Source of the DNA: Escherichia coli
Lineage (GTDB): Bacteria > Pseudomonadota > Gammaproteobacteria > Enterobacterales > Enterobacteriaceae
DNA: 64,000 nt
Assembly: GCF_016026235.1 (NCBI RefSeq)
Contig: NZ_CP065613.1
Reading direction: 5' to 3' (one strand)
Shown here piece by piece: positions 21,697 to 35,748 of the stretch (positions are counted from its first letter, which is position 1; each line of letters begins with the position of its first letter). A program made the position numbers and the translations under genes. The notes under the pieces were generated by a model. That model had not been told where the DNA came from and did no database searches. It was given only the letters and a program-made list of their open reading frames with translations.

Positions 21697-22131
21697 ATGT
21701 TAAGTATTATTTTGACAGGGCATGGCGGGTTTGCCAGTGGCATGGAAAAAGCAATGAAGCAAATCCTCGGTGAGCAATCGCAGTTTATCGCCATCGATTT
21801 TCCGGAAACCTCAAGCACCGCGCTGCTTACATCGCAGCTTGAAGAGGCCATCGCCCAACTGGATTGTGAAGATGGCATTGTTTTTCTGACGGATTTGCTG
21901 GGCGGCACGCCGTTTCGCGTAGCTTCAACGCTGGCGATGCAAAAACCGGGCTGTGAAGTGATCACCGGCACCAATTTGCAACTGCTACTGGAGATGGCGC
22001 TGGAGCGCGAAGGGTTAAGCGGTGAAGAATTCCGTGTACAGGCGCTGGAGTGTGGACATCGTGGGCTGACCAGTCTGGTGGACGAGTTAGGCCGCTGCCA
22101 TGAAGAATGTCCGGTCGAGGAAGGGATATGA
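21697..22131 (+). CDS. agaF: PTS EIIA component (mannose family)
   Basis: 144-aa ORF; stop overlaps agaA start (ATGA). Confidence 0.85.
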   Translation: MLSIILTGHGGFASGMEKAMKQILGEQSQFIAIDFPETSSTALLTSQLEEAIAQLDCEDGIVFLTDLLGGTPFRVASTLAMQKPGCEVITGTNLQLLLEMALEREGLSGEEFRVQALECGHRGLTSLVDELGRCHEECPVEEGI

Positions 22132-23261
22132 CACACGTTCTGCGCGCCAGAAGGCTGCTGACTGAAGAGGGATGGCTCGATGACCATCAGTTGCGTATTG
22201 CTGACGGTGTCATCGCAGCAATCGAACCGATTCCAGTGGGCGTGACTGAACGCGATGCGGAACTGCTCTGCCCCGCTTACATCGACACCCATGTACACGG
22301 TGGTGCGGGCGTTGATGTAATGGATGACGCGCCGGATGTGCTCGACAAGCTGGCAATGCACAAGGCACGCGAAGGTGTCGGCAGTTGGTTACCGACTACC
22401 GTAACCGCGCCGCTTAATACCATTCATGCGGCGCTGAAACGTATTGCGCAACGTTGCCAACGCGGCGGACCTGGTGCGCAAGTGCTGGGGAGTTATCTCG
22501 AAGGACCGTACTTCACGCCGCAGAATAAAGGCGCGCATCCGCCGGAGTTGTTTCGCGAGCTTGAAATTGCCGAGCTGGATCAATTGATTGCCGTTTCTCA
22601 GCACACCTTACGCGTGGTAGCGCTGGCACCGGAAAAAGAGGGGGCATTGCAGGCCATCCGCCATCTTAAACAGCAAAATGTACGAGTGATGCTGGGGCAT
22701 AGCGCGGCGACCTGGCAACAAACTCGCGCCGCGTTTGATGCTGGTGCCGACGGCCTGGTGCATTGCTATAACGGGATGACAGGTTTACATCACCGCGAAC
22801 CGGGAATGGTTGGCGCGGGATTAACGGACAAGCGCGCCTGGCTGGAACTGATAGCCGATGGTCATCATGTGCATCCGGCGGCGATGTCGCTGTGTTGTTG
22901 CTGTGCGAAAGAGAGAATCGTGCTGATCACCGACGCGATGCAGGCAGCCGGGATGCCGGATGGTCGCTATACGTTATGTGGCGAAGAAGTGCAGATGCAC
23001 GGTGGCGTTGTCCGTACCGCGTCCGGTGGGCTGGCGGGCAGTACGCTGTCTGTTGATGCGGCAGTGCGCAATATGGTCGAGTTGACGGGCGTAACGCCTG
23101 CGGAAGCCATTCATATGGCATCGCTGCATCCGGCGCGAATGCTAGGTGTTGATGGTGTTCTGGGATCGCTTAAACCGGGCAAACGCGCCAGCGTCGTTGC
23201 GCTGGATAGCGGGCTGCATGTGCAACAAATCTGGATTCAGGGTCAATTAGCTTCGTTTTGA
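22128..23261 (+). CDS. agaA: N-acetylgalactosamine-6-phosphate deacetylase (full length)
   Basis: ORF track 22107..23261; ATG at 22128 gives 377 aa, MTHVLRARRLL. Confidence 0.85.
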   Translation: MTHVLRARRLLTEEGWLDDHQLRIADGVIAAIEPIPVGVTERDAELLCPAYIDTHVHGGAGVDVMDDAPDVLDKLAMHKAREGVGSWLPTTVTAPLNTIHAALKRIAQRCQRGGPGAQVLGSYLEGPYFTPQNKGAHPPELFRELEIAELDQLIAVSQHTLRVVALAPEKEGALQAIRHLKQQNVRVMLGHSAATWQQTRAAFDAGADGLVHCYNGMTGLHHREPGMVGAGLTDKRAWLELIADGHHVHPAAMSLCCCCAKERIVLITDAMQAAGMPDGRYTLCGEEVQMHGGVVRTASGGLAGSTLSVDAAVRNMVELTGVTPAEAIHMASLHPARMLGVDGVLGSLKPGKRASVVALDSGLHVQQIWIQGQLASF

Positions 23262-25733: not shown

Positions 25734-25742
25734 ATCAGTACA
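25734..25742. repeat. left copy of 9-bp target-site duplication ATCAGTACA
   Basis: Identical 9-mer directly abuts both IS1 ends. Confidence 0.9.
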
Positions 25743-25757
25743 GGTAATGACTCCAAC

Positions 25758-26261
25758 TTATTGATAGTGTTTTATGTTCAGATAATGCCCGATGACTTTG
25801 TCATGCAGCTCCACCGATTTTGAGAACGACAGCGACTTCCGTCCCAGCCGTGCCAGGTGCTGCCTCAGATTCAGGTTATGCCGCTCAATTCGCTGCGTAT
25901 ATCGCTTGCTGATTACGTGCAGCTTTCCCTTCAGGCGGGATTCATACAGCGGCCAGCCATCCGTCATCCATATCACCACGTCAAAGGGTGACAGCAGGCT
26001 CATAAGACGCCCCAGCGTCGCCATAGTGCGTTCACCGAATACGTGCGCAACAACCGTCTTCCGGAGACTGTCATACGCGTAAAACAGCCAGCGCTGGCGC
26101 GATTTAGCCCCGACATAGCCCCACTGTTCGTCCATTTCCGCGCAGACGATGACGTCACTGCCCGGCTGTATGCGCGAGGTTACCGACTGCGGCCTGAGTT
26201 TTTTAAGTGACGTAAAATCGTGTTGAGGCCAACGCCCATAATGCGGGCAGTTGCCCGGCAT
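25758..26261 (-). CDS. insB: IS1 InsB (transposase C-terminal part, made as InsAB' by -1 frameshift)
   Basis: 167-aa [25 protein letters not shown]... Confidence 0.9.
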
Positions 26262-26455
26262 CCAACGCCATTCATGGCCATATCAATGATTTTCTGGTGC
26301 GTACCGGGTTGAGAAGCGGTGTAAGTGAACTGCAGTTGCCATGTTTTACGGCAGTGAGAGCAGAGATAGCGCTGATGTCCGGCGGTGCTTTTGCCGTTAC
26401 GCACCACCCCGTCAGTAGCTGAACAGGAGGGACAGCTGATAGAAACAGAAGCCAC
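26180..26455 (-). CDS. insA: IS1 InsA (transposition inhibitor / transposase N-terminal part)
   Basis: 91-aa [43 protein letters not shown] (zinc-finger + HTH). Confidence 0.9.
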
Positions 26456-26510
26456 TGGAGCACCTCAAAAACACCATCATACACTAAATCAGTAAGTTGG
26501 CAGCATCACC

Positions 26511-26519
26511 ATCAGTACA
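26511..26519. repeat. right copy of 9-bp target-site duplication ATCAGTACA
   Basis: Identical to 25734..25742. Confidence 0.9.
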
Positions 26520-28682: not shown

Positions 28683-29438
28683 ATGGAACGAGGCACTGCG
28701 TCTGGCGGTGCCTCTTTACTTAAGGAATTTCATCCTGTGCAAACCCTTCAGCAAGTTGAAAACTATACGGCGTTAAGTGAACGTGCCAGCGAATATTTAT
28801 TGGCCGTGATCCGTAGCAAACCGGATGCCGTGATTTGCCTGGCGACCGGAGCCACGCCATTACTGACGTATCATTATCTGGTAGAAAAAATCCACCTGCA
28901 GCAGGTTGATGTCAGCCAGCTCACCTTCGTCAAGCTCGACGAATGGGTGGATCTGCCATTAACGATGCCTGGCACCTGCGAAACTTTCCTGCAACAGCAT
29001 ATCGTGCAGCCGCTGGGGCTACGTGAAGACCAGCTCATCAGCTTTCGCTCCGAAGAGATAAATGAGACAGAGTGCGAACGGGTAACGAACCTGATTGCGC
29101 GCAAAGGCGGTCTGGATTTATGCGTTCTCGGATTGGGGAAAAACGGTCATCTTGGGCTGAACGAACCGGGAGAAAACCTGCAACCGGCCTGCCATATCAG
29201 TCAACTTGATGCCAGAACACAGCAACATGAGATGTTAAAAACCGCGGGTCGCCCCGTGACTCGTGGGATCACCTTAGGCCTGAAGGATATTCTCAATGCC
29301 CGCGAGGTTTTGTTACTGGTGACTGGCGAAGGAAAGCAGGATGCGACAGAACGTTTTCTCACGGCTAAAGTCTCTACCTCTATCCCGGCTTCGTTTTTGT
29401 GGCTGCACAGTAACTTTATTTGTTTAATTAATACCTAA
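28683..29438 (+). CDS. agaI: galactosamine-6-phosphate isomerase/deaminase-like (NagB family)
   Basis: 251-aa ORF. Confidence 0.85.
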   Translation: MERGTASGGASLLKEFHPVQTLQQVENYTALSERASEYLLAVIRSKPDAVICLATGATPLLTYHYLVEKIHLQQVDVSQLTFVKLDEWVDLPLTMPGTCETFLQQHIVQPLGLREDQLISFRSEEINETECERVTNLIARKGGLDLCVLGLGKNGHLGLNEPGENLQPACHISQLDARTQQHEMLKTAGRPVTRGITLGLKDILNAREVLLLVTGEGKQDATERFLTAKVSTSIPASFLWLHSNFICLINT

Positions 29439-29838
29439 CCAGATGAAAAATTTGCTCAAAATGTTTAAATTAACTTATTCAACAGTCACGCATTATATTA
29501 AATAACATTTGACTGGGTTGAACATAACGCCAATAGCAAAAGGAGTTATGTTCAACAATTTAATTTTAGATATACATATAACTTGTTCTATTAATAAACC
29601 ATCTCGTATTCTGACTCGCCCCTTGGCCCAGCAAAGTCAGGCATTTATACTCTTTTTAACACATAGAAAATTCATATAAATATAATAAAAACATCAAATA
29701 TTTGCATATAAATATAATCTTAAAGTTTAGCCTATTTAATGTTCAATGAAATATTTCTACCTGTATAATCTTTAAAGATGTTGAACATATATTCACATTA
29801 AATATGATTATGTACTTGTTACAAGGATAAGGTTATAA
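29439..29838 (+). promoter_or_regulatory. AT-rich upstream region of yraH fimbrial operon with direct and inverted repeats
   Basis: 400 bp strongly AT-rich; direct repeat catataaatataat twice; inverted repeat ttgaacataac...gttatgttcaa. Confidence 0.4.
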
Positions 29839-30423
29839 ATGAATAAAGTTACAAAAACAGCTATTGCGGGCTTACTTGCGCTTTTCGCAGGTAATGCCGC
29901 TGCAACCGATGGTGAAATAGTTTTTGATGGCGAGATTTTAAAATCCGCTTGTGAAATCAATGACTCTGATAAGAAAATTGAAGTTGCTCTTGGTCACTAT
30001 AATGCCGAACAGTTTCGTTCTGTAGGCGATCGTAGCCCAAAAATTCCATTCACTATTCCTTTAGTTAACTGCCCAGTGACTGGGTGGGAGCACGATAACG
30101 GCAACGTTGAAGCGTCTTTCCGTTTATGGCTGGAAACGCGGGATAATGGTACCGTCCCTAACTTCCCTAACTTGGCAAAAGTGGGCTCTTTTGCTGGCAC
30201 AGCAGCAACAGGTGTGGGTATCCGTATTGACGATGCGGAAAGCGGAAACCTTATGCCACTAAATGCTATGGGCAATGATAACACAGTTTATCAGATCCCT
30301 GCGGACTCCGCTGGAGTTGTTAATGTTGACCTCATCGCTTACTACGTATCAACCGTTGAAGCATCAGAAATCACCCCAGGGGAAGCAGACGCTGTCGTTA
30401 ACGTAACGCTGGATTACCGTTAA
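29839..30423 (+). CDS. yraH: fimbrial major subunit-like protein
   Basis: 194-aa ORF with signal peptide MNKVTKTAIAGLLALFAGNAAA. Confidence 0.85.
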   Translation: MNKVTKTAIAGLLALFAGNAAATDGEIVFDGEILKSACEINDSDKKIEVALGHYNAEQFRSVGDRSPKIPFTIPLVNCPVTGWEHDNGNVEASFRLWLETRDNGTVPNFPNLAKVGSFAGTAATGVGIRIDDAESGNLMPLNAMGNDNTVYQIPADSAGVVNVDLIAYYVSTVEASEITPGEADAVVNVTLDYR

Positions 30424-30502
30424 TACGTTACGGCGTTATCTGACCTTTCAGATAACGCCCTTTTCCTTCCTCTTTCTCGTTGTATCAGGTTGAAAAATAA
30501 CT

Positions 30503-31198
30503 ATGTCAAAACGAACATTCGCGGTGATATTTACCTTGTTGTGTAGCTTCTGTATCGGCCAGGCGCTTGCAGGGGGTATCGTTTTACAGCGAACGCGAGT
30601 GATCTATGATGCCAGCCGCAAAGAGGCTGCGTTACCTGTCGCAAACAAAGGCGCAGAAACACCTTATTTACTGCAATCATGGGTAGATAATATAGATGGT
30701 ACAAGCCGTGCCCCATTTATTATAACCCCACCGCTATTTCGTCTTGAAGCTGGCGATGATTCATCACTGCGAATTATTAAAACAGCTGATAACCTGCCTG
30801 AAAATAAAGAGTCGCTGTTCTACATTAATGTTCGTGCCATTCCAGCAAAGAAAAAATCAGATGATGTTAATGCTAACGAGTTGACGCTGGTATTTAAAAC
30901 ACGGATCAAAATGTTTTATCGCCCCGCACACTTGAAGGGGTTGGTCAACGATGCGTGGAAATCACTGGAATTTAAACTTAGTGATCATTCACTCAATATA
31001 TATAACCCAACTGAATATTACGTCGTATTTGCCGGACTGGCAGTCGATAAAGCCGATCTCACAAGCAAAATTGAATATATCGCGCCCGGAGAACATAAAC
31101 AGTTACCACTTCCAGCATCTGGCGGAAAGAACGTGAAATGGGCTGCAATCAATGATTATGGCGGCAGTTCCGGGACAGAAACTCGTCCACTGCAATAA
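30503..31198 (+). CDS. yraI: periplasmic fimbrial chaperone (PapD-like)
   Basis: 231-aa ORF with signal peptide. Confidence 0.85.
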
Positions 31199-31226
31199 CA
31201 AATATAAAAACACAGGTCATCAGGGA

Positions 31227-33743
31227 ATGCCACAACGACACCACCAGGGACATAAACGCACACCGAAACAGTTGGCGCTCATTATCAAACGCTGTTTGCC
31301 GATGGTGCTCACTGGCAGCGGCATGCTTTGCACTACCGCTAACGCCGAAGAGTATTATTTCGACCCCATTATGCTGGAAACCACAAAAAGTGGTATGCAA
31401 ACAACCGATCTGTCACGTTTTTCAAAAAAATACGCACAACTACCAGGAACTTATCAGGTTGATATCTGGCTGAATAAAAAGAAGGTTTCACAGAAAAAAA
31501 TTACATTTACCGCCAATGCAGAGCAACTTCTGCAGCCACAGTTTACGGTAGAACAACTACGTGAGCTGGGTATTAAGGTGGATGAAATCCCGGCGCTGGC
31601 TGAAAAAGATGACGATAGCGTGATCAACTCGCTTGAACAAATCATTCCCGGTACAGCTGCTGAATTTGATTTCAATCATCAGCGACTTAATTTGAGCATT
31701 CCCCAAATTGCACTGTACCGTGATGCAAGAGGTTACGTCTCCCCTTCTCGTTGGGACGATGGTATACCAACGCTGTTTACCAACTACTCGTTTACAGGTT
31801 CTGATAACCGTTACCGCCAGGGCAATCGTAGCCAACGACAGTACCTGAATATGCAAAATGGTGCTAATTTTGGCCCCTGGCGATTACGCAACTATTCCAC
31901 ATGGACACGCAACGATCAGACATCAAGCTGGAATACCATCAGTAGTTATTTACAACGTGATATCAAGGCATTGAAGTCTCAGTTGCTTCTGGGAGAAAGC
32001 GCCACCAGCGGCAGTATTTTTTCCAGCTACACCTTTACTGGCGTGCAACTCGCTTCCGACGATAATATGTTGCCAAACAGCCAGCGCGGATTTGCCCCAA
32101 CGGTACGCGGTATCGCAAACAGTAGTGCAATCGTGACTATCAGGCAAAATGGTTATGTGATCTATCAAAGCAACGTGCCAGCGGGTGCCTTTGAAATTAA
32201 CGATCTCTACCCCTCTTCCAACAGCGGCGATTTAGAAGTCACGATTGAAGAAAGTGACGGTACGCAACGTCGCTTTATCCAGCCTTATTCTTCATTACCC
32301 ATGATGCAGCGACCTGGGCATCTAAAATATAGCGCGACCGCTGGACGCTATCGCGCTGATGCAAACAGTGATAGCAAAGAACCCGAATTTGCTGAAGCCA
32401 CGGCAATATATGGTTTGAATAATACTTTTACGCTGTATGGCGGCCTGCTCGGTTCTGAAGATTATTATGCGCTGGGGATCGGTATCGGCGGCACACTTGG
32501 CGCACTGGGCGCGTTGTCGATGGATATCAACAGAGCTGACACCCAATTCGATAACCAGCACTCTTTTCATGGCTATCAATGGCGTACGCAGTACATCAAA
32601 GATATCCCGGAAACCAACACCAATATCGCTGTCAGCTACTATCGCTATACCAACGATGGCTATTTTAGTTTTGATGAAGCCAATACCCGCAATTGGGACT
32701 ATAACAGTCGCCAAAAAAGTGAAATTCAATTCAACATCAGCCAGACAATATTTGATGGGGTAAGTCTGTATGCCTCCGGTTCACAGCAAGACTATTGGGG
32801 CAATAACGAGAAAAACAGGAATATCTCTGTTGGGGTTTCCGGCCAGCAATGGGGAATTGGTTACAGCCTGAATTATCAATACAGCCGCTACACTGATCAA
32901 AATAATGACCGCGCACTCTCTTTGAATCTCAGTATTCCGTTAGAACGCTGGTTACCGCGTAGCCGGGTTTCCTATCAGATGACCAGCCAGAAAGATCGCC
33001 CAACCCAACATGAAATGCGTCTTGATGGCTCACTGCTGGATGATGGTCGCCTGAGCTATAGCCTGGAACAAAGTCTGGATGACGATAACAACCATAACAG
33101 TAGCCTGAACGCCAGTTACCGTTCACCTTATGGAACCTTCAGTGCCGGATACAGTTACGGTAATGACAGCAGCCAATACAATTACGGCGTTACCGGCGGC
33201 GTGGTTATCCATCCTCATGGCGTGACGCTCTCGCAATATCTGGGCAACGCTTTTGCGCTTATCGATGCTAACGGGGCATCTGGCGTGAGGATACAAAACT
33301 ATCCGGGGATTGCTACCGATCCCTTTGGCTATGCAGTGGTTCCTTATCTCACAACTTATCAGGAAAACCGTCTCTCGGTAGATACTACGCAGCTGCCCGA
33401 TAACGTCGATCTTGAACAAACAACACAGTTTGTGGTGCCCAACAGAGGTGCAATGGTAGCGGCGCGTTTCAACGCCAATATCGGTTATCGCGTACTTGTT
33501 ACAGTCAGCGATCGCAACGGTAAACCGTTGCCCTTTGGCGCTCTTGCCAGCAACGATGATACGGGGCAACAAAGTATCGTCGATGAGGGCGGCATACTAT
33601 ATCTCTCTGGGATATCGAGTAAATCACAAAGCTGGACTGTACGCTGGGGAAATCAGGCAGATCAACAATGTCAGTTTGCTTTTAGTACACCGGGTTCAGA
33701 ACCAACAACCTCTGTATTACAAGGCACAGCGCAGTGCCATTAA
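31227..33743 (+). CDS. yraJ: outer-membrane fimbrial usher
   Basis: ORF track 31152..33743; start placed at MPQRHHQGHK (838 aa). Confidence 0.8.
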   Translation: MPQRHHQGHKRTPKQLALIIKRCLPMVLTGSGMLCTTANAEEYYFDPIMLETTKSGMQTTDLSRFSKKYAQLPGTYQVDIWLNKKKVSQKKITFTANAEQLLQPQFTVEQLRELGIKVDEIPALAEKDDDSVINSLEQIIPGTAAEFDFNHQRLNLSIPQIALYRDARGYVSPSRWDDGIPTLFTNYSFTGSDNRYRQGNRSQRQYLNMQNGANFGPWRLRNYSTWTRNDQTSSWNTISSYLQRDIKALKSQLLLGESATSGSIFSSYTFTGVQLASDDNMLPNSQRGFAPTVRGIANSSAIVTIRQNGYVIYQSNVPAGAFEINDLYPSSNSGDLEVTIEESDGTQRRFIQPYSSLPMMQRPGHLKYSATAGRYRADANSDSKEPEFAEATAIYGLNNTFTLYGGLLGSEDYYALGIGIGGTLGALGALSMDINRADTQFDNQHSFHGYQWRTQYIKDIPETNTNIAVSYYRYTNDGYFSFDEANTRNWDYNSRQKSEIQFNISQTIFDGVSLYASGSQQDYWGNNEKNRNISVGVSGQQWGIGYSLNYQYSRYTDQNNDRALSLNLSIPLERWLPRSRVSYQMTSQKDRPTQHEMRLDGSLLDDGRLSYSLEQSLDDDNNHNSSLNASYRSPYGTFSAGYSYGNDSSQYNYGVTGGVVIHPHGVTLSQYLGNAFALIDANGASGVRIQNYPGIATDPFGYAVVPYLTTYQENRLSVDTTQLPDNVDLEQTTQFVVPNRGAMVAARFNANIGYRVLVTVSDRNGKPLPFGALASNDDTGQQSIVDEGGILYLSGISSKSQSWTVRWGNQADQQCQFAFSTPGSEPTTSVLQGTAQCH

Positions 33744-33753
33744 GGATAAAAAA

Positions 33754-34845
33754 ATGAAAAGAGCGCCTCTTATAACAGGACTTTTGTTGATATCCACATC
33801 CTGCGCTTATGCCTCCTCAGGAGGGTGTGGAGCCGACAGCACTAGCGGTGCGACAAATTACAGCAGTGTGGTTGATGATGTTACGGTGAACCAGACAGAT
33901 AACGTGACAGGACGGGAGTTTACCTCTGCAACGCTAAGTAGCACTAACTGGCAATACGCCTGTTCCTGCTCTGCGGGTAAGGCAGTTAAACTTGTCTATA
34001 TGGTCAGCCCCGTACTTACCACCACTGGACATCAGACAGGATATTACAAACTCAATGACAGCCTGGATATTAAAACCACATTACAGGCAAACGACATTCC
34101 AGGACTCACAACCGACCAGGTTGTCTCTGTTAACACCCAATTCACACAGATAAAAAGCAGCACCGTATATTCTGCTGCAACCCAAACGGGTGTTTGCCAG
34201 GGTGACACGTCTCGTTATGGACCCGTTAATATTGGTGCAAATACCACCTTTACCCTGTATGTCACCAAGCCATTTCTCGGCTCGATGACCATTCCGAAAA
34301 CGGATATTGCCGTCATTAAAGGCGCGTGGGTCGATGGAATGGGAAGCCCGTCTACAGGTGACTTCCATGATTTAGTCAAGTTATCGATTCAGGGAAATCT
34401 CACCGCCCCACAGTCGTGCAAAATTAATCAGGGCGATGTTATTAAGGTTAATTTTGGATTCATCAATGGTCAGAAGTTTACCACCCGCAATGCCATGCCA
34501 GACGGTTTTACTCCAGTAGACTTTGATATCACTTATGACTGTGGTGATACTTCAAAGATTAAAAACTCGTTGCAAATGCGCATCGACGGTACAACTGGGG
34601 TAGTAGACCAGTACAACCTGGTCGCCAGGCGAAGAAGTTCAGACAATGTGCCCGATGTCGGTATTCGTATTGAAAATCTCGGCGGCGGAGTTGCAAATAT
34701 TCCTTTTCAGAACGGTATCCTTCCCGTTGATCCTTCCGGGCATGGCACCGTCAATATGCGCGCCTGGCCAGTTAATCTGGTCGGTGGTGAGCTGGAAACA
34801 GGAAAATTTCAGGGCACAGCCACCATTACCGTCATCGTGCGGTAA
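33754..34845 (+). CDS. yraK: fimbrial adhesin-like protein
   Basis: ORF track 33496..34845; ATG at 33754 gives MKRAPLITGLLLISTSCAYA signal peptide, 363 aa. Confidence 0.8.
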   Translation: MKRAPLITGLLLISTSCAYASSGGCGADSTSGATNYSSVVDDVTVNQTDNVTGREFTSATLSSTNWQYACSCSAGKAVKLVYMVSPVLTTTGHQTGYYKLNDSLDIKTTLQANDIPGLTTDQVVSVNTQFTQIKSSTVYSAATQTGVCQGDTSRYGPVNIGANTTFTLYVTKPFLGSMTIPKTDIAVIKGAWVDGMGSPSTGDFHDLVKLSIQGNLTAPQSCKINQGDVIKVNFGFINGQKFTTRNAMPDGFTPVDFDITYDCGDTSKIKNSLQMRIDGTTGVVDQYNLVARRRSSDNVPDVGIRIENLGGGVANIPFQNGILPVDPSGHGTVNMRAWPVNLVGGELETGKFQGTATITVIVR

Positions 34846-34852
34846 AAGAAGA

Positions 34853-34876
34853 CGTTGCGTTTTGATTAACGCAACG
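34853..34876. terminator. bidirectional hairpin between convergent yraK and rsmI
   Basis: cgttgcgtt-ttgatt-aacgcaacg hairpin with flanking A-run. Confidence 0.5.
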
Positions 34877-34887
34877 CTTCGGCACTG

Positions 34888-35748
34888 TTACTCCTGCTGC
34901 TCCAGCGCATACTTATACAGCGCATTTTTCTTCACGCCGTGAATTTCTGCGGCCAGCGCCGCCGCTTTTTTCAGCGGCAGTTCTGCCTGTAGCAGAGCCA
35001 GCGTGCGCAGGGCATCAGCAGGCAGGTCTTCTTCCTGTGCTTTATGACCTTCGACAATCAGCACCATTTCGCCTTTGCGACGGTTTTCATCTTCCTTTAC
35101 CCACGCCAGCAGCTCGCCAACGGGCGCGCCGTGAATGGTTTCCCAGGTTTTGGTCAGCTCACGCGCCAGAACCACGTAGCGGGATTCGCCTAATACCGCA
35201 ACGATATCTTCCAGGCTATCTAACAGACGGTGGGTAGATTCATAAAAAATCAGCGTGCGCGGCTCCGCTTCAATGGCTTTTAGCGCATCACGGCGGCCTT
35301 TTGATTTGGCAGGTAAAAAGCCTTCGTAACAGAAACGGTCAGAGGGTAAACCCGCGGCGCTTAACGCAGTGATAGCAGCACACGGTCCGGGTAGCGGCAC
35401 CACACGAATCCCCGCTTCACGGCAGGTACGCACCAGATGGTAGCCAGGATCGTTAATTAGCGGCGTTCCGGCATCGGAAACCAGCGCAATGTTTTGCCCC
35501 TCTTGCAGCTTCGCCAGCAACGTTTCGGCTTTTTGTTGTTCGTTATGGTCGTGCAGCGCAAACAACCGGGCATTAATCCCAAAATGTTGCAGCAATAAAC
35601 CGGTGTGACGAGTATCCTCGGCGGCAATCAGATCAACGGCCTGTAATACCTCTAACGCACGCTGGGTGATATCCGCCAGATTGCCGATTGGCGTCGGTAC
35701 AATGTAAAGCTGGCCCTGAGAATTATCCGCCGATTGGTGTTGTTTCAT
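34888..35748 (-). CDS. rsmI: 16S rRNA 2'-O-ribose C1402 methyltransferase
   Basis: 286-aa ORF. Confidence 0.9.

Follow-up and report, generated by a model that had tools for sequence, protein, structure and literature searches.

The yraHIJK fimbrial operon of Escherichia coli and its AT-rich control region: intact genes, a conserved upstream box and a probable aga terminator hairpin

Which elements of the region in front of a normally silent fimbrial operon are likely to control it, and does any of them act as a phase switch? The question is raised by positions 29439-34845 of the 64,000-nucleotide stretch of E. coli DNA analysed here (contig NZ_CP065613.1, hereafter the window). This region is very probably the E. 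coli yraHIJK chaperone-usher fimbrial operon, normally silent, intact, under purifying selection and preceded by an AT-rich, H-NS-bound 'promoter island'. The literature already covers the operon, the fact that it is cryptic, its link with H-NS and the status of the spacer as a 'promoter island'.

An intact chaperone-usher operon between agaI and rsmI

Four ORFs, all on the + strand, code for yraH, yraI, yraJ and yraK over 29839-34845. They are the only genes between agaI and rsmI in the window, in the nearest annotated genome (99.9% identity to the window's yraHIJK locus) and in K-12. Since their lengths equal those of the RefSeq annotation of this nearest genome and of K-12, none of the four carries a frameshift, the finding that a first-pass annotation of this DNA had named as one that would speak against it. 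Its reading of four intact genes (major subunit, PapD-like chaperone, usher and adhesin-like tip protein) agrees with Pfam and with the homologues as well (Table 1). Compared with E. whittamii, dN/dS is 0.08-0.12 across the four genes, and such values of about 0.1 indicate functional constraint.

The yraHIJK locus of K-12 MG1655 (b3142-b3145) has the same place between agaI and rsmI, the same four genes and gene lengths and likewise a 400-bp spacer, with 98.2% nucleotide identity to the window over 5.6 kb. Upstream, the window also has an IS1 within the kbaY-agaB spacer, in contrast to K-12. The program-made list of ORFs puts the start of yraJ earlier, at 31152. A scan of 29000-35200 against Rfam gave no match at E up to 1.

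Table 1. Features of the yraHIJK region, in window coordinates
Feature	Coordinates	Strand	Evidence or remark
agaI-yraH spacer, operon control region, homologue of the K-12 'promoter island'	29439..29838	+	400 bp, 26% GC vs 50% in the whole window
Hairpin with 12+2 bp stem and 10-nt loop, then AAUUUAAUUUUAG; probable aga terminator or insulator	29517..29556	+	78 nt past the agaI stop codon
First copy of CATATAAATATAAT, strain-variable near-copy	29673..29686	+	Overlap with the -35 hexamer of the promoter predicted by SELEX in K-12
Second copy of CATATAAATATAAT; holds the box ATATAAATA (29706-29714), then a TAnnnT hexamer (TATAAT here, 29713-29718)	29705..29718	+	Invariant in 6 E. coli alleles
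Conserved -10-like element TGTATAAT, candidate core promoter	29762..29769	+	Conservation across alleles
Third copy of TGTTGAACATA	29779..29789	+	11-nt perfect inverted repeat with 29547-29557, 221 nt between arms; overlaps a TTGAAC -35-like hexamer
yraH, major fimbrial subunit, 194 aa	29839..30423	+	Pfam Fimbrial E=7e-27; dN/dS 0.10 vs E. whittamii
Terminator-like hairpin after yraH; probable intra-operon attenuator	30432..30459	+	12-bp stem, 6 GC pairs, tail CTTTTCCTTC
yraI, periplasmic PapD-like chaperone, 231 aa	30503..31198	+	PapD_N E=6e-41, PapD_C E=7e-12; dN/dS 0.09 vs E. whittamii
yraJ, outer-membrane usher, 838 aa	31227..33743	+	PapC_N E=4e-46, Usher E=8e-217, PapC_C E=4e-19; dN/dS 0.08 vs E. 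whittamii
yraK, two-domain tip adhesin, 363 aa	33754..34845	+	Fimbrial (pilin) domain at residues 211-362; dN/dS 0.12 vs E. whittamii
Terminator-like hairpin between convergent yraK and rsmI	34852..34877	.	10-bp stem, 5 GC pairs, tail CTTCTTTTAC on the minus strand

The closest solved homologues of the Yra proteins belong to type 1 fimbriae (fimAICDFGH). In YraH, the Fimbrial domain covers residues 27-193, FimA (E=5e-10) and FimI are the closest relatives of solved structure, and the N-terminus MNKVTKTAIAGLLALFAGNAAA looks by eye like a signal peptide. YraI aligns to FimC over residues 9-222 (E=2e-42) without a long insertion, and its TRVIY and TRIKMFYRP motifs are aligned to TRVIY and SRIKLYYRP of FimC. 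It displays the anchoring Arg and Lys and the short F1-G1 loop of a two-domain PapD-like chaperone; in assigning these two residues to subunit anchoring we presume that established knowledge of PapD and FimC applies. YraJ matches an usher of the FimD family over nearly its full length (E=8e-176). Judged by the genes alone, usher, chaperone, pilin and two-domain adhesin are all present, as in Fim-like, FGS-type chaperone-usher operons. On the other hand, the yra operon differs from type 1 fimbriae in having no adaptor subunit genes (FimF/FimG) and no FimB/FimE recombinases, in that no fimS inversion was seen, and in its adhesin, which is LpfD-like and not FimH-like.

Indeed, residues 45-360 of YraK, annotated in K-12 as 'putative fimbrial adhesin YraK', match both domains of PDB 5afo (E=9e-12), an entry titled only 'FIMBRIAE' which we take to be the LpfD adhesin. 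Sequence similarity to LpfD is low, however, and the lpf operon differs from yra in its organisation and chromosomal site. Some adhesins of the Yra/Ush clade have been grouped with LpfD (PMC5717340).

By homology with the Fim system, the subunits would be exported to the periplasm, where YraI would cap and fold them through donor-strand complementation. The YraJ usher would then polymerise them via donor-strand exchange, the YraK adhesin first, at the tip, and the YraH rod next. The hairpin that follows yraH (dG -19.3 kcal/mol, z -7.3) probably has a part in the stoichiometry. By attenuating read-through it would let the output of pilin exceed that of chaperone, usher and adhesin. In six other lineages, a strong hairpin of unrelated sequence is found 3' of the yraH homologue. 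At the other end of the operon, the hairpin between yraK and rsmI was called by the terminator scan on the minus (rsmI) strand; its + strand fold has -23.6 kcal/mol and a z of -2.7.

The AT-rich spacer and its conserved box

The agaI-yraH spacer is as AT-rich as the first-pass annotation had stated, and its silencing by H-NS, claimed at the same time, finds its support in published data on K-12. The spacer is 96% identical to that of K-12 over 29380-29900. In K-12, the agaI/yraH spacer counts as one of 78 'promoter islands' associated with H-NS (PMC3661553, Table 1 therein); it is listed and scored as H-NS-bound, and associated with horizontally acquired genes, by Panyukov and Ozoline (2013). 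It is also an RpoD-SELEX promoter marked HNS (PMC3946193), and cryptic chaperone-usher fimbriae are repressed by H-NS (PMC3559732). From its K-12 homologue, the present allele would likewise be H-NS-bound and silenced. Such AT-richness is shared by 7 of 8 upstream regions checked for other K-12 fimbrial genes (23-36% GC), that of yehE having 40%.

Yra expression would thus normally be off, the spacer acting, as described for K-12, as a promoter island that holds RNA polymerase and gives little productive transcript. To be switched on, the operon would need relief of silencing by a regulator encoded outside the locus. The operon can be induced, since overexpression of BolA raises yraH (PMC4337573) and yraHIJ were higher in STEC associated with HUS (PMC6033998).

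The consensus scan does not single out a promoter, since it finds no more promoter-like sites in the spacer than in shuffles (3 vs 3.4 expected), and three -10 hexamers are candidates. Taken as a whole, the spacer is no better conserved than the genes (55-62% vs 54-64% nucleotide identity to the Escherichia sp. MOD1-EC7003 allele). The element TGTATAAT is identical in the window, K-12, E. whittamii and MOD1-EC7003, its counterparts being GGTATAAT in E. coli MEW and GGTATACT in C. amalonaticus. A 56-aa ORF within the spacer (29509-29679, TTG start) was rejected as a gene: the region carries indels and lacks conservation in E. whittamii and MOD1-EC7003.

The repeated motif pointed out by the first-pass annotation does exist. 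The spacer holds CATATAAATATAAT exactly twice, at 29673 and 29705, and a direct repeat of at least 14 nt arises in only 0.3% of 2000 dinucleotide shuffles. Yet the duplication is perfect over 14 nt in this allele only: the first copy agrees with the second at 12 of 14 positions in K-12, O157:H7, BL21 and 14EC029, and at 13 of 14 in CREC-591. In K-12, the predicted promoter is TTGATA-17-TCAAAT (PMC3946193). Its window counterpart consists of TTCATA (29671-29676), which replaces the K-12 TTGATA at the -35 hexamer, and TCAAAT (29694-29699).

The second copy behaves otherwise. With at most one mismatch, ATATAAATA is found at -129 to -135 from the start codon in the Escherichia and Citrobacter yra alleles compared (E. 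coli, E. whittamii, Escherichia sp. MOD1-EC7003, E. coli MEW, Citrobacter sp. MGH106 and C. amalonaticus), for a chance expectation of 0.74 hits per 400 nt. The genes of alleles keeping this position have diverged to about 55-65% nucleotide identity. In front of 8 other K-12 fimbrial genes, 9-mers resembling ATATAAATA turn up about as often as chance predicts and without a fixed location, and no TGTTGAACATA site is shared, bar one hit with 1 mismatch upstream of sfmA. The box is thus a specific feature of the yra lineage, and the comparison with other fimbrial promoters, which the first-pass annotation had proposed, gives no shared ATATAAATA box beyond chance. The repeated motif is better explained as one conserved box accompanied by a strain-variable near-copy, which refines the earlier reading in that only one copy is under long-term constraint. 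Together with the hairpin discussed below, this conserved box at -133 is not part of what has been described for 'promoter islands'.

The constrained elements, namely the second motif copy and TGTATAAT, could form the true promoter core, or else a nucleation site for H-NS or a site for a regulator. We would put forward only as a tentative pair of proposals that the ATATAAATA box binds an undiscovered dedicated regulator or is the true core promoter and, separately, that the agaI-rsmI site is a long-lived three-state polymorphism (common yra, deeply divergent yra-like, empty). If the former is true, the box decides when the 'cryptic' fimbria is made. In any case it offers a precise target of 9-14 nt for mutation in the study of Yra activation. 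There is some motive for such work because features of yraK ranked high in a recent model of O157:H7 outcome, in addition to the STEC data on yraHIJ cited above.

Inverted repeats and phase variation

The 11-bp inverted repeat reported earlier in the spacer is present and longer than first stated; it extends over 12 nt if exact, or over 15 nt at 93% (29517-29531 / 29542-29556, loop of 10). An exact inverted repeat of this length with a loop of at most 30 nt is found in 0.7% of shuffles. The corresponding hairpin has a dG of -18.1 kcal/mol (z -4.1), and none of 200 shuffles folds as well. Its stem is invariant in 6 E. coli alleles, which show one loop substitution, and the hairpin is kept in MOD1-EC7003 and MEW; in E. 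whittamii, one G-U pair and one broken pair weaken it. At three pairs both sides have changed and pairing persists, a covariation support that is thin (3 pairs, 5 sequences) because most stem pairs never vary. Its stem is AU-rich, its loop has 10 nt and its U tract is interrupted; the terminator scan made no call here. Most likely, this inverted repeat folds into a hairpin serving as terminator or insulator for the agaBCDI transcript upstream, and so is probably a part of the 3' end of the aga operon.

Alternatively, the three copies of TGTTGAACATA could be operator half-sites for a dimeric transcription factor that loops the spacer and controls yraH, two of them constituting the palindrome, which would not be an RNA terminator, and the third overlapping TTGAAC at 29779-29789. 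In favour of this, six E. coli alleles show no change in any of the three copies, two divergent alleles retain the palindrome with changes that are symmetric, and the proximal copy overlaps a promoter-like TTGAAC-16-TATGAT. This proximal copy, however, which is kept in E. coli and almost kept in E. whittamii, is missing from the divergent MOD1-EC7003 and MEW alleles. Moreover, the arms are 16 nt apart here and 8 nt apart in these two alleles, a variation more easily reconciled with a hairpin whose loop is free than with a fixed dimer site. The G-U stem pair of E. whittamii is tolerated only in + strand RNA, and the locus holds no cognate regulator gene. We consider the operator arrangement unlikely and retain the aga hairpin.

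Phase-variable switching, also suggested by the first-pass annotation, is not supported at this locus in either of two known forms. In a fimS-like invertible promoter, a site-specific recombinase would flip the 243-bp segment 29547-29789 and so turn the operon on or off. This segment is indeed flanked by the 11-nt perfect inverted repeats of Table 1 and carries TATAAT-rich motifs, its span including both motif copies and TGTATAAT. Nevertheless, an exact inverted repeat of at least 11 nt, at any distance, is met in 10.7% of spacer shuffles, the right arm is unconserved in the MOD1-EC7003 and MEW alleles, and no recombinase gene, tyrosine recombinases included, lies between agaI and rsmI. Using a query in which 29547-29789 was inverted and counting as a match at least 80% of the query length, we found the inverted orientation in 0 of the 3378 E. 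coli genomes that hold the region. Inversion is thus highly improbable here, and close to refuted.

In a Pap-type switch, Dam methylation competes with the binding of Lrp at two GATC sites upstream of the promoter, which sets the ON or OFF state. Nothing argues for it beyond the fimbrial and AT-rich nature of the operon. There is no GATC in 29300-29950, against 278 in the window, and none in the upstream regions of E. whittamii, MOD1-EC7003 and Citrobacter MGH106; nor is there any papI/papB-like gene between agaI and rsmI. We attach virtually no credence to this mechanism, which the lack of a GATC pair, its defining feature, already refutes. That the yra locus is devoid of phase-switch hardware is a useful negative.

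Distribution and functionality of the operon

Among 5426 complete E. coli genomes, 3268 hold at least 80% of the region; the yra unit is absent from about 39%. Empty agaI/rsmI sites were seen in two cases (L002 and L003), and a divergent yra-like allele occupies the agaI-rsmI site in only 2 of the 5426 genomes. Yra-like operons adjoin rsmI also in Citrobacter, in 'Enterobacter' pulveris and in an Enterobacteriaceae MAG. Parsimony over a few outgroups points to loss, and not gain, at the origin of the empty site. The whole 5.4-kb yra unit would then be an old resident of the rsmI-proximal site, lost from those E. coli genomes that are now without it.

Such losses, together with the poor expression under laboratory conditions described in the literature and the IS elements found inside the operon in some strains, could be taken to mean that yra is a decaying relic, 'cryptic' standing for non-functional and the spacer features for neutral AT-rich noise. 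This is very unlikely in view of the four ORFs intact in the window and in most carriers, of the dN/dS values given above, of the place beside rsmI kept across genera and of the conserved position of both box and attenuator. In addition, forced expression of yra reportedly confers adhesion, a result that later papers credit to Korea et al. 2010. A maintained, normally silent operon therefore remains our preferred reading.

Finally, UshC has been reported to be mutually exclusive with YraJ. Its locus tag, ECSF_0165, hints at a different chromosomal location, and UshC may thus not be simply another allele at the agaI-rsmI site.

Fimbrial genes and their upstream spacer

Four plus-strand genes of the E. 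coli chromosome, yraHIJK, lie between agaI and rsmI. The best genome match of window 29300-34900 is E. coli FDAARGOS_943 (99.9%), and the four gene lengths are identical to those in the RefSeq annotation of this genome and of K-12 MG1655 (b3142-b3145), so that none carries a frameshift. Among proteins of solved structure, YraH is closest to FimA (E=5e-10), YraI to FimC (E=2e-42 over residues 9-222, where the TRVIY and RIKxxYRP motifs align), YraJ to a FimD-family usher (E=8e-176) and YraK to PDB 5afo (E=9e-12, residues 45-360), an entry titled just 'FIMBRIAE' which we take to be the two-domain adhesin LpfD. Together with the Pfam domains, these data confirm the gene names and intactness proposed by the first-pass annotation. 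Compared with E. whittamii, dN/dS is 0.08-0.12 for all four genes, which therefore indicates that the operon, although cryptic, is not decaying.

Features of the agaI-rsmI region and of the neighbouring aga genes (window positions)
Feature	Position	Strand	Description
IS1 in kbaY-agaB spacer	25743-26510		768 bp; transposase ORF on minus strand, DDE_Tnp_IS1 E=6e-78
IS1 target duplication	25734-25742, 26511-26519		9 bp, ATCAGTACA
agaI	28683-29438		upstream neighbour of yraHIJK
agaI-yraH spacer	29439-29838		400 bp
Inverted repeat	29517-29531 / 29542-29556		12 nt exact, or 15 nt at 93%
CATATAAATATAAT copies	29673, 29705		direct repeat
TGTATAAT	29762-29769		second conserved element
TGTTGAACATA	29779-29789		third half-site copy
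yraH	29839-30423	+	Pfam Fimbrial
Hairpin 3' of yraH	30432-30459		12-bp stem, CU-rich tail; -19.3 kcal/mol, z -7.3
yraI	30503-31198	+	Pfam PapD_N+PapD_C
yraJ	31227-33743	+	Pfam PapC_N+Usher+PapC_C
yraK	33754-34845	+	Pfam Fimbrial, residues 211-362 only
Hairpin between yraK and rsmI	34852-34877		
rsmI	34888-35748		convergent to yraHIJK

The spacer is as AT-rich as had been described (26% GC versus 50% for the window), and its repeats are real. CATATAAATATAAT occurs twice and nowhere else in the window; among 2000 dinucleotide shuffles of the spacer, an exact direct repeat of at least 14 nt arose in 0.3%, and an exact inverted repeat as long as the observed one (12 nt, instead of the 11 bp claimed) with a short loop in 0.7%. 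An Rfam scan of the yra region gave no match. As a whole, the feature is already known, the earlier observation being correct and its interpretation half right. What is new is in small details: the proposed reassignment of the hairpin to the aga 3' end, one conserved box at -133, a conserved candidate attenuator after yraH and the three states of the agaI-rsmI site across the population.

Silencing and the question of a phase switch

This layout had been interpreted as H-NS-silenced, with phase-variable or regulator-dependent switching. The silenced, regulator-dependent half is supported by prior work, through published reports on K-12, whereas phase variation was not borne out. The homologous spacer of K-12 is one of 78 'promoter islands' (entry agaI(+)yraH(+), 3285165_325), linked to horizontally acquired genes and scored H-NS-bound (PMC3661553). 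If the two MG1655 releases, whose lengths differ by 1977 bp, are offset by that amount, this island corresponds to about window 29555-29880. Shimada et al. list the K-12 spacer as an RpoD-SELEX promoter flagged HNS, TTGATA-17-TCAAAT (PMC3946193); the window differs in having TTCATA at the -35 hexamer. Wurpel et al., after Korea et al. 2010, describe such cryptic fimbriae as repressed by H-NS (PMC3559732). BolA overexpression raises yraH (PMC4337573) and HUS-associated STEC show higher yraHIJ (PMC6033998). The silenced, regulator-dependent reading of yraHIJK is thus already known.

A Pap-type switch requires GATC pairs; it was rejected because 29300-29950 contains no GATC, against 278 in the window, and related yra upstream regions mostly lack it too. 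A fimS-type switch requires a recombinase and two orientations. The third half-site creates a perfect inverted repeat of 11 nt whose arms lie 221 nt apart, and therefore a synthetic allele with 29547-29789 inverted was built and searched in 5426 complete E. coli genomes. None of the 3378 genomes carrying the region had the inverted orientation at ≥80% coverage, all matching in split pieces only, and no recombinase gene lies between agaI and rsmI; this type was rejected as well. Slipped-strand tracts left no sign in six sampled alleles, since their single indel, of 1 nt, lies far upstream beside the agaI stop codon.

Hairpins and conserved elements

The inverted repeat forms a hairpin with a stem of 12+2 bp (-18.1 kcal/mol, z -4.1), which begins 78 nt past the agaI stop codon and is followed by a U-rich stretch. 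Six E. coli alleles have exactly the same stem and show a single substitution in the loop. The hairpin is kept in two deeply divergent alleles, those of Escherichia sp. MOD1-EC7003 (perfect arms of 14 nt around an 8-nt loop) and E. coli MEW, three pairs being altered on both sides yet still paired across divergent alleles; the E. whittamii stem has one G-U pair and one broken pair. Because loop length varies and a G-U pair occurs, an RNA hairpin on the plus strand fits better than a fixed dimer operator. Fold, conservation and the presence of a different, GC-rich hairpin between agaI and rsmI in yra-less genomes point to an element that terminates or insulates the aga transcript at its 3' end, a reading to which we give about even chances since the stem is AU-rich and a terminator scan made no call there.

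After yraH, six other lineages have a hairpin of unrelated sequence at the same place as the window's. The usual attenuator keeps pilin in excess over assembly proteins, and the hairpin after yraH would fit such a function.

The two CATATAAATATAAT copies are not equally conserved: the first lies where the spacer varies most and matches at 12-13 of 14 positions in the other five E. coli alleles, while the second is invariant. The core of this second copy, ATATAAATA, stands between -129 and -135 relative to the start codon in six lineages (E. coli, E. whittamii, MOD1-EC7003, MEW, Citrobacter sp. MGH106 and C. amalonaticus), even though yra genes share ~80-86% nucleotide identity with the window in E. 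whittamii and only ~54-69% in more distant lineages. The hexamer after this box keeps TAnnnT in 8/9 lineages. Either this hexamer or TGTATAAT, which lies 58 nt downstream, could be the real -10 element; a consensus promoter scan of the spacer (3 sites, 3.4 expected) does not choose between them. Upstream of eight other K-12 fimbrial genes the box is absent as a shared element, similar 9-mers occurring there at chance frequency and scattered positions.

Three states of the agaI-rsmI site

Most of the yra region is held by 3268 of the 5426 genomes; ~2100 match the agaI 3' end only, and in two of these, NGF1 and WB61, rsmI directly follows agaI. The site has three states in E. coli: common yraHIJK (~60%), empty (~39%) and a deeply divergent yra-like allele in two genomes, MEW (with a 1047-bp upstream spacer) and 18KM2445. 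Between yra-less genomes and the window, nucleotide homology stops at 29407/29408 and restarts at 34893. By eye, the terminal AgaI codons remain similar as protein, so that the indel is essentially the spacer, yraHIJK and its terminator. The last ~10 agaI codons (29408-29438), which are AT-rich, are peculiar to the haplotype with yra (…SNFICLINT, versus …NHFTCVIDEMCRR in yra-less genomes); the AT-richness of the spacer therefore reaches into the neighbouring gene.

Yra-like operons also adjoin rsmI in Citrobacter sp. MGH106, C. amalonaticus, 'Enterobacter' pulveris and an Enterobacteriaceae MAG, where Yra proteins are 43-69% identical to those of the window and RsmI 92-95%. By parsimony, the operon would be an old resident lost by some E. 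coli lineages. Several strains, including O157:H7 isolates, carry IS3-family (IS3, IS1203) or IS1 insertions or deletions within yraH-yraK; in strain 20-20, IS1 replaces yraH, yraI and the yraJ start. One YraI fragment, 97% identical to the E. coli protein, comes from a 2233-bp contig filed under Xenorhabdus szentirmaii DSM 16338 and probably reflects contamination of that assembly by E. coli.

Among the aga genes, the window has an IS1 that FDAARGOS_943 lacks, whose kbaY-agaB spacer is only 166 nt; the insertion may have a polar effect on agaBCDI and hence on any read-through toward yra. In FDAARGOS_943, yhaV has an internal stop and agaA/nagA is annotated as frameshifted, unlike the window, where the agaA position (22107-23261) holds an uninterrupted 384-aa ORF; the window therefore comes from a strain other than FDAARGOS_943. 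The annotation of O157:H7 WS4202 lists agaI as a pseudogene with an internal stop.
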